A stretch of DNA of 32,000 nt from Candidatus Heimdallarchaeota archaeon. Its GTDB lineage: Archaea > Asgardarchaeota > Heimdallarchaeia > JABLTI01. The translations under genes and the position numbers were made by a program. Each line of letters starts with the position of its first letter. Position 1 is the first letter of the stretch. The notes under the pieces are model-generated. The model had not been told where the DNA came from. It worked only from the letters and a program-made list of their open reading frames with translations, and searched no databases. The stretch is taken from assembly GCA_030614005.1 (NCBI GenBank), contig JAUWKS010000034.1, forward strand, positions 1 to 32,000, written 5' to 3'. Shown here in pieces: positions 2 through 6,218 of the stretch.

Positions 2-1033
2 GAGATATTAAACATTAGTAATCCTACACTACCCACGGAAATTGGTCAATTCGATGACGGTGGTTGTGCTTATGGTGTTGTTGTTTCAGGTGAATATGCT
101 TATGTTGCGGACGGTTTTGATGGTCTGGAGATCATAGATATCAGTGTCCCTAGCACTCCTGTTGAGGTTGGTCAAGTCTTTGACGGTGGTTCTGCTAATG
201 ATGTGTTTGTTTCAGGCGATTATGCCTATGTTGCGGATGATACTAATGGTCTGGAGATCATAGATATTAGTAATCCTGCGATACCAATAGAAGTGGGTCA
301 GCTCTATGATGGAGGTCGGTGTTATGGTGTTGTTGTCTCAGGTGACTATGCCTATACTGCGGATGGTTCTGGAGGGTTAGAGATATTAGATATTAGTAAT
401 CCTGCGTTACCTACAGAAGTGGGTGCGTTTACTGACGGTGGCAATGTTGAGAGCGTTTTTGTTTCAGGTGACTATGCCTATGTTGGTAGTGCTGATTTTG
501 AGATTATAGATATTAGTGTCCCTAGTACTCCTGTTGAGGTATCCAAGATTTTTGACGATGGTTATGCTCGTGGTATTTTTGTTTTAGGTGATTCTGCCTT
601 TGTTGCGGATAATTCTGATGGTCTTGAGATTTTCAAAGCAGGTTATGATGCAGATGGAGATGGCTTAACTGATTTTGAAGAGATCAATACCTATTCTACT
701 GATCCTGATGATGATGATACTGATGATGATACAATCTTTGATGGTGAAGAAGTGATTATAGGTGAGGATGGTTTTATTACTAATCCCAATCTTGCAGATA
801 CAGATGGAGATGGATTTGATGATAACGTAGAAATAGCCGAAGGAACAGATCCAACAGATCCGGATGACCATCCTCCTATCCCCACTACTACTCCTCCCCC
901 AACTACAACTACTCCTACAACTCCAACAGAAGACGGAGCATTTATTGGCGGCTTTGTTAGTTTAATTGCTGTTTGTTCAACTGTTCTATTCATTACAGTA
1001 ACCGTGGAAAAACGTCGAAAGTATATGAAATAA
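2..1033 (+). CDS. 5'-truncated LVIVD-repeat surface protein with acidic DxDxDG (TSP3-like Ca-binding) repeats, Pro/Thr linker and C-terminal TM anchor
   Basis: Frame is open from position 2 ([21 protein letters not shown]...), so the true start lies upstream of the window. About five ~42-aa repeats ([24 protein letters not shown]); [18 protein letters not shown] repeats; [18 protein letters not shown] linker; hydrophobic helix then KRRK. Confidence 0.9.
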
Positions 1034-1310: not shown

Positions 1311-1889
1311 ATGAGTTGGCTCTCTAAAATATTTAGTAAAAAGGAAATTGAGCAAAAAGCAAATATAGTTATTTTAGGTGCTTCTGGTGTAGGAAAAACA
1401 ACACTAGTTCGATACTTAGAAACTGGGCAACCAGTGACTCAAGACCCTCGTACTACATTGGGAATAGACATACGTCAAAATCCAATAACAATTAGTGGTT
1501 GGTCTTTATCAGCCATTGATGTTGGAGGTCAAGAATTGTATCGTGAAAGTCTTTGGAGCTTAGGTATCAGTCAATCAGATGCAGTTATCTACGTCATTGA
1601 TGGTACTGTTAAACCTACTGTTGATAATACCTCCTTTGAAGTCAGTAAGTTTAGCTTTGATTATATGTTATCAATAGTTGAAGATTCTACACCAATTTTG
1701 ATTCTGATTAACAAACAAGATTTGACCGAAGTTGAACCAATTACAGCTGAACAATCAATCGAATTATATGGTATATTAAAAATGGTTGGCAGATCGTTCA
1801 ATATCTTACCTTCATCAGCGAAATTTGGTTTTGGTGTAGAAACAGCTGTTTATTGGTTAATTGATAAAATACATGAGGCAAAAACATAA
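1311..1889 (+). CDS. Arf-family-like small GTPase (copy 1)
   Basis: G1 GASGVGKT, G2 RTT, G3 DVGGQ, G4 NKQD, G5 SAK; N-terminal amphipathic helix MSWLSKIF; no C-terminal Cys/prenylation motif; RBS GAGGT upstream. Confidence 0.9.
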   Translation: MSWLSKIFSKKEIEQKANIVILGASGVGKTTLVRYLETGQPVTQDPRTTLGIDIRQNPITISGWSLSAIDVGGQELYRESLWSLGISQSDAVIYVIDGTVKPTVDNTSFEVSKFSFDYMLSIVEDSTPILILINKQDLTEVEPITAEQSIELYGILKMVGRSFNILPSSAKFGFGVETAVYWLIDKIHEAKT

Positions 1890-1947: not shown

Positions 1948-1997
1948 TTTTATTTAGTAGTATGTACAAGTCATTTAGTATAGAAAGATGTGTTATT

Positions 1998-2687
1998 ATG
2001 GAGAATAGTGTACAAATTGCCTTCCTAAGAAAAGATTTTCAGCGAATCATTGATTTTGATCGATTATACCCCTCCGGAAAAATGGTTGTTTTTATTGCTA
2101 AAAGTGACACTGAAAAAGGAACTCCTAATTACAAGCATATTGAAGAGAGTCTTAAGAAACTAAGAGAGTATTGTGAATTAGCTAAAATACAGTTTAATAT
2201 GCAAGTTATTGATTTTATAACGAAAGAGTCATTTCTAGAAATAATATTTGATTTTGCAAGAGCGATTATTGTTGACTATCAACCAAGATCATTATATAGA
2301 TTAAATCTAGGAGAAGATTCTCTCTTAATGAACATTGGATTATTACAAGGTGCCCAAATAATTCCCAGTTTATTTCCTGTTGAAATTTCTTATTATCTTA
2401 AAGAGAAATACAAAGAACAAGAATATCTTTTTGAAAAGTCAATCGTAAAACCATTCTCTAACCTTATCTCTGAACCAGTCAGTATAGAACTTTTAAAATG
2501 CGTTGAGGACGGCAAAAATCTAGATGCTATTAAGGACATTTTAAAAATCTCTCTTGGGTCAGTTTCCAACCATCTTAAGTATCTTAAAGAACACGATCTT
2601 ATTAGTGTTAGTGGTCACCTAAGGAATTTAACAAACTTGGGCCGATTAGTTAAAGAAATTTTGGAAATTAAAGAATCTATAAAATAG
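1998..2687 (+). CDS. Transcriptional regulator: CARF-like (Csa3/DUF6293-type) Rossmann domain plus C-terminal winged HTH
   Basis: C-terminal LDAIKDILKISLGSVSNHLKYLKEHDLI...LTNLGR is an ArsR-like wHTH. N-terminal beta-alpha pattern (VQIAFL..DFQRI; KMVVFI; QVIDF; RLNLGED..LMNIGLL) resembles Csa3-type CARF. Start at 1998 (MENSV) preferred over 1962. Confidence 0.7.
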   Translation: MENSVQIAFLRKDFQRIIDFDRLYPSGKMVVFIAKSDTEKGTPNYKHIEESLKKLREYCELAKIQFNMQVIDFITKESFLEIIFDFARAIIVDYQPRSLYRLNLGEDSLLMNIGLLQGAQIIPSLFPVEISYYLKEKYKEQEYLFEKSIVKPFSNLISEPVSIELLKCVEDGKNLDAIKDILKISLGSVSNHLKYLKEHDLISVSGHLRNLTNLGRLVKEILEIKESIK

Positions 2688-2829: not shown

Positions 2830-3681
2830 GTGGTTACAATTGCTGATTGGTTCAATGTTACAATGGATCTAGAATATTCAAGACTTGTAGGATTAATTTC
2901 TTATAGTCTTATTCTCGTTGGAACTTTTATCTTTCAATTCACAATAACAAATAAGATAAGAAGCTCAAATGTTAAAAGTGATTCTTATCGGAGCTTTAGG
3001 TTGCTATATGTTGCAGTAGCTATTATTGCAGGGACATATGCATCGGATCATTTAGGAGCATTTCTTGGAGGAAATGTTATGCATTCTCAATTCTCGGTTT
3101 TTCTATCTATTATTGGATATACAATTGCTATTTACGCATTAAACTTGTTCCTTCTTAGAATTATCAATTTTAGATCATCGATTAAACGATTTATTCGTGT
3201 TCTTACCGTTATCCAAGTAGGTCTTTTGATTTTTGCTAGTATTGTATATTTACTCGCTAGTTTTATTGAAATGCCAGCATTTTTTGTTGACTATACAGTA
3301 ATGATCTTTGGTGTAACAGTTATATTTGCTACGATATTTACAATCATCAGTATGCTAACAGAAGCAAGAAAAACAGCAAATAAAATGGTAAAATTGAGAT
3401 TAAGATTAGCCGCATTAGGAACTTTAGGTATTTTACTTGAAGGTGCTGCAAATATTCTCCATATTTTACTTGGAACTTTAGGTGCTGATACTACTAATTA
3501 TTATCAAATAGGTATTCCACTTCTAGCAGTTCTTTTCTATTCAATATTCATGTTTAGCTATTATTTCTCATTGTTTCCACCAATGTGGTTACAACAAGCA
3601 GGTGGAGTATTACCTCCTAGCTTTACTGACTTGATGAAGAAACAAGAACAATTAAAACAACTCGGGAGTGCAACTAAATGA
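2830..3681 (+). CDS. Stand-alone seven-transmembrane protein (putative sensor/receptor)
   Basis: Seven hydrophobic segments by eye (approx. aa 19-39, 56-80, 88-112, 121-146, 151-176, 189-218, 224-249), basic loops before TM2/TM4/TM6, short cytoplasmic tail after FPPxW; GTG start with RBS. Confidence 0.8.
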   Translation: MVTIADWFNVTMDLEYSRLVGLISYSLILVGTFIFQFTITNKIRSSNVKSDSYRSFRLLYVAVAIIAGTYASDHLGAFLGGNVMHSQFSVFLSIIGYTIAIYALNLFLLRIINFRSSIKRFIRVLTVIQVGLLIFASIVYLLASFIEMPAFFVDYTVMIFGVTVIFATIFTIISMLTEARKTANKMVKLRLRLAALGTLGILLEGAANILHILLGTLGADTTNYYQIGIPLLAVLFYSIFMFSYYFSLFPPMWLQQAGGVLPPSFTDLMKKQEQLKQLGSATK

Positions 3682-4571
3682 ATGTTACAAATTTCGCAAT
3701 AATCGAAATTGGAAGAGAAAAAGGTGCTTCCGCTTTACACGTATCTGGTTTATCAGATAAAATAATGAAGCGCTTACTTATTGAAGCATTGCCACAAGGA
3801 AATCCGGAGAATGAATTCTTCAAGATTGTCAAAATCGAGGATAATCTATTCATCAGCTCACTCATACTTGCTGACAATGAGGACTCTGGTTTAGCTATGA
3901 TAATAAAATTAGATTCAGCTTTACAAGAAGTAAATCCAATAGGCTTTATTGATGGTATGAATAAATTATTGAAATCATTTCTAGCAAACAGCGAAAACAT
4001 CCCTGATGAATTAGATATTTCTTATCTAAAAATCGCTTTATCAGAAAATACTTACGAAAATTTTGATACTATTATCTTCTCAATTCTATCTCAACAAAAG
4101 ACGCTTGTTGTCGGTGAAAAAGACGAGATTTCGAGTTTTTTCGCTAACCTCTTTGAATTTATTCCCAATAGTTTAAAAGAATATATTACATTAATTGCTA
4201 ATTCCACGAACCTCTCAAATAATGTCGCTATACACGCATTAATTGTATCTGATGACGTTCTCAAGATAATTGACAACAAGAAAGGAGAATATACCATACT
4301 TTTCCTCCCAACAAAGACAGCTTACGGATCATTCAGTTCACCATTCTGTAAAAAAGTTGCTCAATTATTTGCCGAACAAAAGAAGGAGAGCATTAAGGAA
4401 GAATTAATTCACTTCTTCAAAATATCAATTGAATCCGAAGAGATCATTCCAATTGCTGATTTCGCTGCAGAACATAAGCTTGCTCTAGCAGATGCCTCAC
4501 TTCTTCAAAGGATGCGAGCTGGTTACTTTGATATCAAAGTCGAAAAAGGATTCTTTGAACAAACAGAGTAG
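3678..4571 (+). CDS. DENN-like protein (uDENN/longin plus cDENN-like core), putative GTPase GEF
   Basis: N-terminal beta-beta-alpha with EALPQG (uDENN-like alPxg). FDTIIFSILSQQKTLVVGEKDEISSFFANLFEFIP matches the cDENN pattern l..i..alL.e.kilv.s....ls.f...l..l.P. ATGA overlap with the 7TM stop. Confidence 0.6.
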   Translation: MNVTNFAIIEIGREKGASALHVSGLSDKIMKRLLIEALPQGNPENEFFKIVKIEDNLFISSLILADNEDSGLAMIIKLDSALQEVNPIGFIDGMNKLLKSFLANSENIPDELDISYLKIALSENTYENFDTIIFSILSQQKTLVVGEKDEISSFFANLFEFIPNSLKEYITLIANSTNLSNNVAIHALIVSDDVLKIIDNKKGEYTILFLPTKTAYGSFSSPFCKKVAQLFAEQKKESIKEELIHFFKISIESEEIIPIADFAAEHKLALADASLLQRMRAGYFDIKVEKGFFEQTE

Positions 4572-4579
4572 GTGATATC

Positions 4580-5164
4580 ATGAGTTGGCTTGGACGAATT
4601 TTTAAACGGAAAGCAATAGAACAAAAAGCGAGCCTTGTTATACTTGGATCAAGTGGAGCAGGGAAAACTACTCTGGTCAGATTTCTTGAAACAGGAGAAC
4701 CTGTTTTAGAGAATCCTCGTACTACACTAGGAATTGACATTAGGCAATCACCAATTGAAATTAGTGGTTGGTCATTAACTGCAATAGATGTTGGCGGTCA
4801 GGAACTCTATCGCGAAAGCTTATGGAGCTTAGGTGTTTCACAAGCAAGTGCGGTAATCTATGTCCTTGATGGAACTATTAGAAAAACTATCAATAATGAT
4901 GCTTTTGAGGTATCCAAATTTTCATTTGATTATATGTTAACAATTGTTGAAGAAGATGTTCCAATTCTTATTCTAGTCAATAAACAAGATCTTGTAGAGG
5001 AAAATCCACTCACTACACAGGAAGCCATTGAAATGTATGGAATAAGTAATCTCGTTGGACGATCATTCAACATTTTACCAAGTTCTGCAAAATATGGTAA
5101 TGGTATTGAATTTGCTATAGAGTGGTTGGTTGATAAGATCGCAGAGAAAAATATTAAGGAGTAA
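4580..5164 (+). CDS. Arf-family-like small GTPase (copy 2)
   Basis: GSSGAGKT, DVGGQ, NKQD, SAK; N-terminal MSWLGRIF helix; about 71% identical to 1311..1889 by manual alignment; RBS AGGTGAT. Confidence 0.9.
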   Translation: MSWLGRIFKRKAIEQKASLVILGSSGAGKTTLVRFLETGEPVLENPRTTLGIDIRQSPIEISGWSLTAIDVGGQELYRESLWSLGVSQASAVIYVLDGTIRKTINNDAFEVSKFSFDYMLTIVEEDVPILILVNKQDLVEENPLTTQEAIEMYGISNLVGRSFNILPSSAKYGNGIEFAIEWLVDKIAEKNIKE

Positions 5165-5171
5165 AAATCAC

Positions 5172-6218
5172 ATGGATCCACTAAAGTTCAACGTATACAC
5201 ATCTCTTTCGTCTCTCACAGACGAAGGAATGACTATTTTCTATAATCCCAATATTCCTAATATAGATACAGATGATTTAGTAAAAGTAGCAAATTATTAC
5301 TCAATTATCTTAAACTTCTCTGAGAGCAAAGGAGCACTATATGGACCACTACCAATCGCTTATCACACAGAATATCTACTTTATATCTATACTTTTGAAA
5401 CAACAAATCTACAAGTTCAAGATGAAAGAATAAAAAGAGACGGTAGTAGAGTTCCTTCATTTCTTCTCATTTTCTTCCCAACAATTGCAGAAAGTTTTAC
5501 TACAAGAGCAAGAGGACAAATCTCACGTGAGATCTCAAATTGGTTAGAACAATTTAAATCGATTCAAGATTTCAAAGATAAGGATGTTAACAAATTAAAT
5601 TCTCAAATTGAAGCAGCAATATACAAAGAGCAAAGTATATTTGCACTAGATGAAATCGAAGAAGCTAACGTTGTTCTTGGAAAGAGTGTTGAACTATTAC
5701 ACAACGTCTTAAAATATCAAGAAAAACCTGTTAAAATACTCCTGTCAGGAACAGATGATCTTTTATTCTCAATTACTCGAAAAGCTATTTTTGGCAATAA
5801 CTCATCTTTAGTTTCATATTTCAAAAATGAAAATAACAAAATTGATTTCAAACTTGGAAAAATTGAAGGTACTATTTTACTAGCTTCTGTCAATACACCA
5901 AACCTCCACAAATATCTATCAAAAGACTTGGATGGCGTTTTACATTTCGGAAACTTCTCAACACCGGAAAGCACTGATGCACATACAGCTGAATTATCTA
6001 AAATAATTAAACAAACATCTCAAGATTGCGTCATTTCATTTGCTATTTGTCAAACAGATAAACCATTAAAAATCAGTGAGACAAAAATACCAGAAGTACT
6101 TCAGGAAGGTGTAGGTCGCACAATTTCTTTATTAGATATGGGACAACAGAAGAATACAATAAGTACTACGATCATTGAGTTTCTTGAAAAACTAATAGAG
6201 TTAATAGGTAAGAAGTAA
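5172..6218 (+). CDS. Longin/uDENN-like N-terminal domain fused to a degenerate small-GTPase-like (pseudo-GTPase) domain
   Basis: Start at 5172 (MDPLKF), 7 nt after the Arf-2 stop. N-terminal YGPLP..YLLYIYTF..DER..SFLLIFFP. C-terminal VKILLSG, DGVLHFGNFS, VISFAICQTD and terminal helix follow Ras-fold spacing but lack GKS/T, DxxG and NKxD. Confidence 0.55.
   Translation: MDPLKFNVYTSLSSLTDEGMTIFYNPNIPNIDTDDLVKVANYYSIILNFSESKGALYGPLPIAYHTEYLLYIYTFETTNLQVQDERIKRDGSRVPSFLLIFFPTIAESFTTRARGQISREISNWLEQFKSIQDFKDKDVNKLNSQIEAAIYKEQSIFALDEIEEANVVLGKSVELLHNVLKYQEKPVKILLSGTDDLLFSITRKAIFGNNSSLVSYFKNENNKIDFKLGKIEGTILLASVNTPNLHKYLSKDLDGVLHFGNFSTPESTDAHTAELSKIIKQTSQDCVISFAICQTDKPLKISETKIPEVLQEGVGRTISLLDMGQQKNTISTTIIEFLEKLIELIGKK

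Follow-up and report, generated by a model that had tools for sequence, protein, structure and literature searches.

A conserved heimdallarchaeial protein predicted to join a longin domain to an Arf-like pseudoGTPase, encoded beside an Arf-family GTPase and a DENN protein

In this study we analysed the first 32,000 nucleotides (nt) of a contig of a Candidatus Heimdallarchaeota archaeon (assembly GCA_030614005.1, contig JAUWKS010000034.1, positions 1 to 32,000; hereafter the window) and focused on the gene at positions 5172-6218. According to structure prediction, its product of 348 amino acids (aa) very probably consists of a longin domain, a long helix and a domain with a Ras/Arf-type G-domain fold. 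The motifs of nucleotide binding have been lost from this last domain. We tentatively favour the view that the protein is a longin-type regulator, probably a GTPase-activating protein (GAP), of the intact small GTPase encoded immediately upstream, with a nearby DENN protein as its partner and its own pseudoGTPase domain as a docking module. Feature coordinates below are those of the window, and all of these features lie on the + strand.

The reading frame at 5172-6218 comprises 348 codons and a stop, without internal stops. Its ATG at position 5172 lies 7 nt past the stop of the GTPase gene at 4580-5164, and the N-termini of 29 orthologues align on its methionine. A word-indexed search retrieved 34 close homologues, all of 330-359 aa, which are unnamed or annotated as 'hypothetical' and which, where the source is labelled, come from Heimdallarchaeota or Asgard metagenome-assembled genomes. 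A profile search of 1.84 billion representative sequences gave 177 matches, with full-length relatives down to E ~1e-20 and many others spanning only the first ~150 residues. Among 300 genomes of the phylum, the family is found in 62 of the ~76 that belong to the window's own class and in 2 of the ~224 others; the genome of the window (3.6 Mb, 90% complete) carries one full-length copy. The ratio of nonsynonymous to synonymous substitution rates (dN/dS) is 0.11-0.33 where dS can be estimated, with dS near saturation; since synonymous sites are saturated for most pairs, only the comparison of dN alone was usable. The window is AT-rich (GC about 0.29-0.41), and 5172-6218 is a real, conserved gene, more than a chance open reading frame (ORF). 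One orthologue, in a single-contig genome of the class (L014, G074:C1:739840-740872), was matched in pieces, with TAA/TAG stops between residues ~54 and 59, and may be a broken copy or a sequencing error.

Sequence searches gave no name to the protein. It matched no Pfam family at E<=1, neither phmmer nor profile searches of PDB sequences returned a longin or GTPase match, and in BLASTP it resembled neither the DENN neighbour nor the adjacent GTPase. The structure was modelled with AlphaFold2 from a 29-sequence alignment, which gave a mean predicted local distance difference test (pLDDT) score of 88 and a predicted template modelling (pTM) score of 0.61, a combination suggesting that the arrangement of the domains relative to each other is uncertain in the model. 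From residue 9 to 125 the elements follow the order of two strands, a helix, three strands and two helices. A single long helix (residues 136-180, positions 5577..5711) then links the two domains, and residues 187-347 form a strand, a helix, three strands, a short helix, a strand, a helix, a strand, a helix, a strand and a final helix. The model was compared exhaustively with 48,161 PDB representatives using VIA-align, which splits it cleanly into residues 3-155, matching longins, and residues ~171-347, matching small GTPases. Matches among Swiss-Prot models include C9orf72, AVL9 and the pseudoGTPase regions of p190RhoGAP.

The N-terminal half was described as longin-like in an initial annotation made from the sequence alone, and the model bears this out. 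The longin domain proper (residues 1-130, positions 5172..5561) has the order beta-beta-alpha-beta-beta-beta-alpha-alpha. Its best match over residues 3-155 is a Lokiarchaeota roadblock-longin protein (8yqg_B, Z 13.3, root-mean-square deviation (rmsd) 2.7, 136 residues aligned). After this archaeal longin, the best matches are longins of the FNIP/SMCR8/Npr type from DENN-family proteins, namely Lst4/FNIP (4zy8_C, Z 12.0), an SMCR8 chain (7o2w_A, Z 10.0) and FNIP2 (6ulg_N, Z 9.1), followed by a TRAPP longin and a SEA/Npr subunit (both Z 8.7). Overall, the FNIP/Lst4, SMCR8 and Npr longins score Z 8.4-12.0.

Conservation is concentrated in the same domain. The 58 full-length relatives share G19, NYYS at 41-44, GPLP at 58-61, Y64, D84, R86, R114 and W124, all in the longin region, together with a few leucine and phenylalanine residues, among them L142, L176 and L320. 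The pattern YGPLP/YIYTF/DxR, on which the initial annotation had drawn, is real and conserved: G58, P59, L60, P61, T74, F75, D84 and R86 are invariant in the 29 orthologues and nearly so in the 58 relatives. Three motifs stand out. The first is the beta1-beta2 hairpin L15-M20 (positions 5214..5231) with its invariant Gly19, which occupies the position of the 'GP motif' of GAP-type longins and reads G-M here. This glycine is kept in 57 of the 58 relatives and in all 39 longins of the family that we aligned irrespective of architecture; the residue that follows it is methionine in 20 of these 39 and proline in only 3. The second motif is the invariant G58-P59-L60-P61 at strand 3 (5343..5354), found in the alignments of orthologues, relatives and family longins. 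The third is D84-E85-R86 (5421..5429), placed by the model in the loop between strands 4 and 5, where R86 (57/58 relatives, 38/39 family longins) is a candidate arginine finger. No variation occurs across the 39 longins at G19, G58 and P61, and very little at P59, D84 and R86. We consider that these data point to the longin as the functional core of the protein, because nearly all residues that are invariant family-wide lie there.

Longins of this type also occur by themselves or form the C-terminal end of TPR, WD40 or beta-helix proteins, with the same three motifs kept, and the domain is a mobile module that extends beyond the operon. In this survey the G/GPLP/DxR longin was seen as the last domain of large proteins of the TPR, WD40 and right-handed beta-helix kinds (P0080, P0083, P0084, P0089, P0092, P0096, P0105 and P0125). 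A separate 258-aa longin paralogue in the genome of the window (L010, G000:C87:24569-24853) has a true G-P hairpin (DDSGP) and LFGPLP, without an arginine in the beta4-beta5 loop.

The C-terminal domain (residues 183-348, positions 5718..6215) has a seven-stranded G-domain fold like that of Arf-GDP, as indicated by Foldseek, VIA-align, a hidden Markov model (HMM) and hhalign. The seven-stranded sheet fits Arf bound to GDP, in which switch I contributes an extra strand. The best VIA-align match is the Asgard Arf protein HodArfR1-GDP (8oul_A, Z 12.6, rmsd 4.2, 169 aligned), and further matches comprise Arf/Arl/Sar1 proteins, MglA, G-alpha and Loki Rag-like proteins. In Foldseek searches of the PDB, ~46 of the top 50 matches are small or other GTPases, mostly Arf in its GDP form (best E 1.6e-6). 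The last turns of the linking helix occupy the place of the Arf N-terminal helix, and the Arf alignments begin at model residues 162-171. The initial annotation had assigned a Ras-like strand order with eroded G boxes to the last ~165 residues, and its strings lie where it put them: V187 of VKILLSG is at nt 5730, VKILLSG forms strand 1 (187-193) and is followed by GTDD, DGVLHFGN forms strand 4 (255-261), VISFAIC forms strand 5 (287-293), QTD falls at the NKxD position and the protein closes in a helix (330-347). Prediction, Foldseek, VIA-align and the alignment of the 58 relatives all uphold that assignment. A receiver or cDENN fold with no Ras-fold match, against which the annotation had staked its reading, did not emerge, as GTPases dominate the structural matches. 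For cDENN or receiver folds in residues 183-348, no DENN chain stood among the matches listed, which GTPases filled, and this is not proof. A GKS triplet at residues 170-172 was considered as a displaced P-loop and rejected; it lies inside the long helix, its glycine position varies (G/S/A) and only K171 is conserved.

Sequence comparisons add a modest signal. Within a set of only 125 ORFs, the HMM of the domain picked out true Arf-family GTPases encoded by the same genome (E 2e-5); the alignments span strands 3 to 5, leave the DxGGQ segment in a gap and show S-Q-T in place of H/N-K-x-D. A comparison with the operon GTPases by hhalign is weak and collinear (E 7.6e-4, probability 25%), pairing CQT with NKQD and VGRTISLLD with VGRSFNILPSSAK; Pfam Arf and Ras gave no match in the domain. 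Because fold and modest sequence signal agree, we say that the domain probably descends from an Arf-family G domain.

This descent would have been accompanied by the loss of every motif. The P-loop remnant G193-T-D-D-L (5748..5762) has acidic residues in place of GK[ST] in the alignments of orthologues and relatives, and none of the 58 relatives has GK[ST] at this position. The NKxD remnant C293-Q294-T295-D296 (6048..6059) aligns to NKQD of the neighbouring GTPase family, with Q294 nearly invariant in orthologues only. The segment G315-R316-x-I-S-L-x-D322-L323 (6114..6140) spans strand 6 together with the G5 loop, and in the alignment its counterpart in the operon GTPases is GRSFNILPSSAK. G1 GxxxxGK[ST], G3 DxxG, G4 NKxD and G5 SAK are absent from the protein and from all 58 relatives, and a search for an active ancestor found no family member with intact G motifs, including L018, which comes from a different family of the phylum. 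By sequence, the domain is a class i pseudoGTPase, and the replacement of GK[ST] by GTDD suggests that it does not bind nucleotide. The domain is not decaying as far as substitution patterns indicate, and both domains are under purifying selection. The 29 orthologues have a mean pairwise identity of 54% in the longin and of 49% in the pseudoGTPase domain; of five comparisons, three (L011, L012, L006) give the latter a dN that does not exceed the longin's, and the two most distant (L013, L004) give it a higher one. Outside the orthologue group, the pseudoGTPase domain keeps almost no invariant residue among the 58 relatives.

Known class i pseudoGTPases, such as the N-terminal domain of AAGAB/Irc6p and pG1/pG2 of p190RhoGAP, likewise have a G-domain fold without G motifs and use it for protein binding. 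Irc6p matches our model at Z 8.7, and AAGAB binds a longin-fold subunit (PMC12490416). There is no sequence relationship to these proteins; in contrast to them, the pseudoGTPase described here is archaeal, apparently Arf-derived and fused in cis to a longin.

The genes upstream of 5172-6218 supply what appear to be the partners of its product. The presumed client, encoded at 4580..5164, is a 194-aa Arf-family small GTPase (Pfam Arf, E 2.4e-23), in which G1 GAGKT, the switch-I TT, DVGGQ, NKQD and SAK are all invariant. As judged from these motifs, the initial annotation was right to regard the preceding gene as an active-type GTPase. The protein also matches Pfam SRPRB (E 1.1e-9). The presumed partner subunit, encoded at 3678..4571, is a compact and complete DENN module of 297 aa (longin, cDENN and dDENN; model pLDDT 89, pTM 0.86), which the initial annotation had not linked to the longin-pseudoGTPase protein. 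Its tripartite fold is evident from the matches to DENND10 (8p0v_M, Z 14.2, 261 aligned over residues 1-289) and DENND1A (6ekk_A, Z 11.9, 270 aligned), with the DENN domains of SMCR8 and FLCN at Z 9.2-9.3; Foldseek returned DENND1B (E 1.4e-6) and C9orf72 (E 1.6e-6). Pfam gave no match to this protein, DENN included. Its own beta1-beta2 hairpin carries the invariant residues R13 and G16. Further upstream, and part of the conserved cluster, is a polytopic membrane protein of 283 aa (2830..3681), whose stop codon overlaps the start of the DENN gene.

We scanned 18 related loci with HMMs and found the DENN gene, the Arf-like GTPase gene and the longin-pseudoGTPase gene together in most loci that have the full-length protein, and the GTPase gene adjoins the longin-pseudoGTPase gene in most of them. 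The order can vary: in the distant locus L008 (5040-6216) the longin-pseudoGTPase gene comes first, followed by two tandem Arf-like GTPases and the DENN gene, and in L002 the GTPase gene has moved to the front of the cluster, four genes away. Many loci share with the window the polytopic membrane protein, a second GTPase paralogue and a winged helix-turn-helix (wHTH) protein. The trio is, by these scans, kept across the class Heimdallarchaeia. In the window the spacings between the genes of 2830-6218 are -4, 8 and 7 nt, which fits a single transcript. A functional link between the longin-pseudoGTPase protein and the adjacent GTPase is likely in our assessment.

Liu et al. (bioRxiv 10.1101/2020.10.19.343400) described an Asgard operon that combines a roadblock-superfamily protein with a small GTPase and a DENN protein, and proposed a guanine nucleotide exchange factor (GEF) function for it, and therefore the DENN-GTPase cluster as such is not new. 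The same three kinds of gene are clustered there. Their roadblock-superfamily gene is 'LAMTOR1-like' and may correspond to our family, and their operon occurs in most Asgard lineages, whereas the family described here is nearly confined to one class. The text consulted mentions no pseudoGTPase domain, unlike what we find here.

The composition of the trio recalls eukaryotic longin-DENN heterodimers, which act as arginine-finger GAPs for Arf and Rag GTPases (PMC8213707). In C9orf72:SMCR8 the two longins pair and cup ARF1, with SMCR8 Arg147 as the finger (PMC8213707). Because the trio offers C9orf72:SMCR8-like parts (two longins, an Arf-like client with its glutamine, an invariant arginine in the longin-pseudoGTPase protein and a hairpin in each longin), we infer a GAP function. 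We propose that the longin of the 5172-6218 protein would pair with that of the DENN protein, as in C9orf72:SMCR8, FLCN:FNIP and NPRL2:NPRL3, and that the pair would form a cup holding the GTP-bound Arf-like GTPase. Arg86, in the beta4-beta5 loop beside the Gly19 hairpin and GPLP 58-61, would then enter the active site as an arginine finger and complement the client's own glutamine of DVGGQ, and the protein would act as the catalytic subunit in a GAP of the longin type. No longer a switch, its pseudoGTPase domain would replace a second DENN domain as a permanent docking module, its docking partner most plausibly being the DENN domain of the partner protein or the membrane protein encoded upstream; AAGAB, with its binding of a longin-fold subunit, sets a precedent (PMC12490416). 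A GAP role with Arg86 as its finger is a possibility that we hold with reserve. Co-folding of the protein with the adjacent GTPase, GTP and Mg gave a score of 0.01 against a mark of 0.32, which weighs neither way on binding.

The likeness to FLCN, SMCR8 and NPRL2 lies in the longin fold, the hairpin glycine between beta1 and beta2 and the arginine in the beta4-beta5 loop. As in the longin-DENN GAP complexes, a neighbouring gene encodes a longin-DENN build, and the client of C9orf72:SMCR8 is Arf-like, as is the client presumed here. Unlike these proteins, the longin-pseudoGTPase protein has no PF11704 match and a G-M rather than a G-P hairpin, and its C-terminal domain is a degenerate GTPase rather than a DENN domain. 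A 2025 survey found that the GP hairpin motif and an arginine finger mark the catalytic longins of three eukaryotic GAP assemblies (CSW, folliculin and GATOR1) and recur in Heimdallarchaeial longins, and it linked the proline of the motif to GAP rather than GEF activity (PMC12290439). The genome of the window itself has PF11704 matches at two other loci, G000:C57:449-649 (L059) and G000:C74:33922-34101 (L077), which encode folliculin-type proteins of ~385-420 aa, whose hairpin reads DDxxGP and whose beta4-beta5 loop carries ARGG. The arginine finger of FLCN is R164.

Several of our results weigh against a GAP function of the folliculin kind. PF11704 has no match in the protein and no relevant one in the 39 family longins at E<=10, and most members have G-M rather than G-P in the hairpin. 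The alignment of the longin family to a Heimdall FLCN-like (PF11704) set by hhalign is collinear and not significant (E 0.02, probability 2%); in it the FLCN-type arginine lies three residues before R86 and the loop length differs, so that the two arginines share the 'same loop', not the 'same position'. The closest solved longin is the Loki roadblock-longin protein, whose activity is unknown, and the TRAPP longin, which is part of a GEF, scores not far below the GAP-type longins. Finally, the invariant R13 of the DENN partner could be the catalytic residue instead. Our leading hypothesis for the protein is accordingly that it acts in the manner of a GAP longin, and membership of the folliculin family is not established.

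Most longin/DENN assemblies, such as TRAPP, Mon1-Ccz1 and DENND1, act as exchange factors or non-catalytic platforms. The longin-pseudoGTPase protein and its DENN partner could likewise form an exchange factor or a platform for the Arf-like GTPase, with Arg86 and GPLP as structural or binding residues, an alternative that we consider rather unlikely and yet the strongest of those weighed here. The best full-length matches of the DENN partner are the Rab GEFs DENND1A and DENND1B, together with DENND10, and the match of a TRAPP longin, the GEF function already proposed for the Asgard operon by Liu et al. and the lack of the proline tied to GAP activity (PMC12290439) all agree with it. It accounts less well for an Asp-x-Arg loop that is kept in 57 of 58 relatives and in 38 of 39 stand-alone or fused longins and has the look of a catalytic finger, and for the highest eukaryotic longin matches being of the FNIP/SMCR8/Npr type.

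A longin may also bind a GTPase without acting on its nucleotide, as in the binding of SR-beta by SR-alpha through its longin-like SRX domain. The longin described here might similarly be an effector or receptor for the GTP form of the Arf-like GTPase that leaves the nucleotide state unchanged and tethers the GTPase to the membrane protein of the cluster. The SRPRB match of the client, the presence of an SR-beta model among the fold matches of the C-terminal domain and the conservation of a membrane protein in the cluster are in line with this idea. It is nevertheless improbable, as the C-terminal domain is of the Ras type rather than the NG fold of SRP-type GTPases and the co-conserved DENN protein would be left without a role.

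The initial annotation had suggested that the pseudoGTPase may dimerise with the adjacent Arf-like protein or serve as its scaffold. On this view the degenerate G domain would pair with the live Arf-like GTPase, G domain to G domain, in a fixed pseudo-heterodimer of which only one partner cycles. The apparent Arf origin of the domain and the position of its gene directly after that of the live GTPase in most loci would suit such a dimer, and so would the location of the residues conserved among orthologues, which surround the old nucleotide pocket where strands 1, 4, 5 and 6 end. A fixed G-G interface is expected to leave a different trace, however: family-wide the domain has almost no invariant surface residue while the client is highly conserved, and in L002 the GTPase gene is four genes off. 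We regard this arrangement, too, as improbable. The comparison with Rag/Gtr proteins, which the annotation had invoked, is loose. These proteins likewise combine a small G domain and a domain of the roadblock/longin superfamily in one chain, and LokiRag structures match our model at Z 9.6-10.2; in the 5172-6218 protein, by contrast, the order is reversed with the longin first, the domain is a longin and not a roadblock, and the G domain is degenerate, so that it does not qualify as a Rag. Moreover, Rags pair through their roadblock domains and both partners bind nucleotide. Least probable is a C-terminal domain that still binds nucleotide or another small ligand in a non-canonical manner: the polar residues N210, K247, S263, Q294, R316 and D322, conserved among orthologues, cluster near the old pocket, but none of the 58 relatives retains any of the five G motifs, the P-loop holds two acidic residues and, in the wider family, the pocket residues are not preserved.

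The closest architectural relatives of the protein are the Asgard longin-GTPase fusions, in which the GTPase either is joined to a longin or has a longin on one side and a roadblock domain on the other (Tran et al. 2024, PMC10933270). These fusions share its build, with a longin at the N-terminus followed by a connecting helix and an Arf/Rag-like G domain. In the ESM Atlas, clusters of Asgard proteins of 528-542 aa (Pfam Arf/Ras/Roc) align over its residues 1-348 with TM scores of 0.54-0.60, and by language-model features the nearest are clusters of 347-aa Arf/Ras proteins. The G domains of the fusions are detectable by Pfam and presumably active, whereas every G motif has been lost across the family described here, and its gene, unlike theirs, forms a fixed trio with the genes of a DENN protein and of a separate live GTPase. 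The protein thus looks like a retired version of the Asgard proteins that combine a longin and an active G domain. As far as we searched the literature, an Arf-derived pseudoGTPase fused to a longin, that is, an archaeal GTPase fold retired into a scaffold, has not been described.

Asgard genomes encode dozens of small GTPases and longin/roadblock proteins, and the genome of the window has 44 Arf-profile matches. Regulators can rarely be matched to their clients, since they do not as a rule lie in operons (Tran et al., PMC10933270). The trio kept across the class is a testable regulator-GTPase set in close archaeal relatives of eukaryotes, and this defined set of three proteins bears on whether GAP or GEF chemistry of the longin/DENN type predates eukaryotes. 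We further speculate, with little confidence, that 2830-6218 encodes a receptor-coupled small-GTPase switch, in which the degenerate G domain would sit as a decoy substrate on the DENN/longin platform until a signal arrives, and that this switch would represent a forerunner of the FLCN-FNIP and C9orf72-SMCR8 GAPs, with a pseudoGTPase in place of the second DENN domain.

The surrounding genes add some minor observations. The membrane protein encoded at 2830-3681 is near only Asgard 'hypothetical' clusters, with a weak lead to HisKA_7TM (0.85). A second Arf-family GTPase, encoded at 1311..1889, is 72% identical to the one at 4580-5164 and was also identified by Pfam; both proteins start with MSWL (no Gly2) and have intact G motifs, and the loci L006 and P0020 likewise carry two or more Arf-family GTPases. 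Between the two Arf-like genes lies 1962-2687 (+), whose 241-aa product has a wHTH in its C-terminal part (Pfam HTH_20, E 1.3e-4). This protein is nearest in language-model features to Csa3-type regulators with a CARF-like N-domain and an HTH (0.91), and the slot that its gene takes is also occupied in L002, L006 and the P0020 locus. The ORF at 2-1033 (+) has an open 5' end; its product, with GDYAYVAD... repeats followed by an acidic stretch rich in D/T, a linker rich in Pro/Thr and a hydrophobic anchor at the C-terminus, looks like a surface protein.

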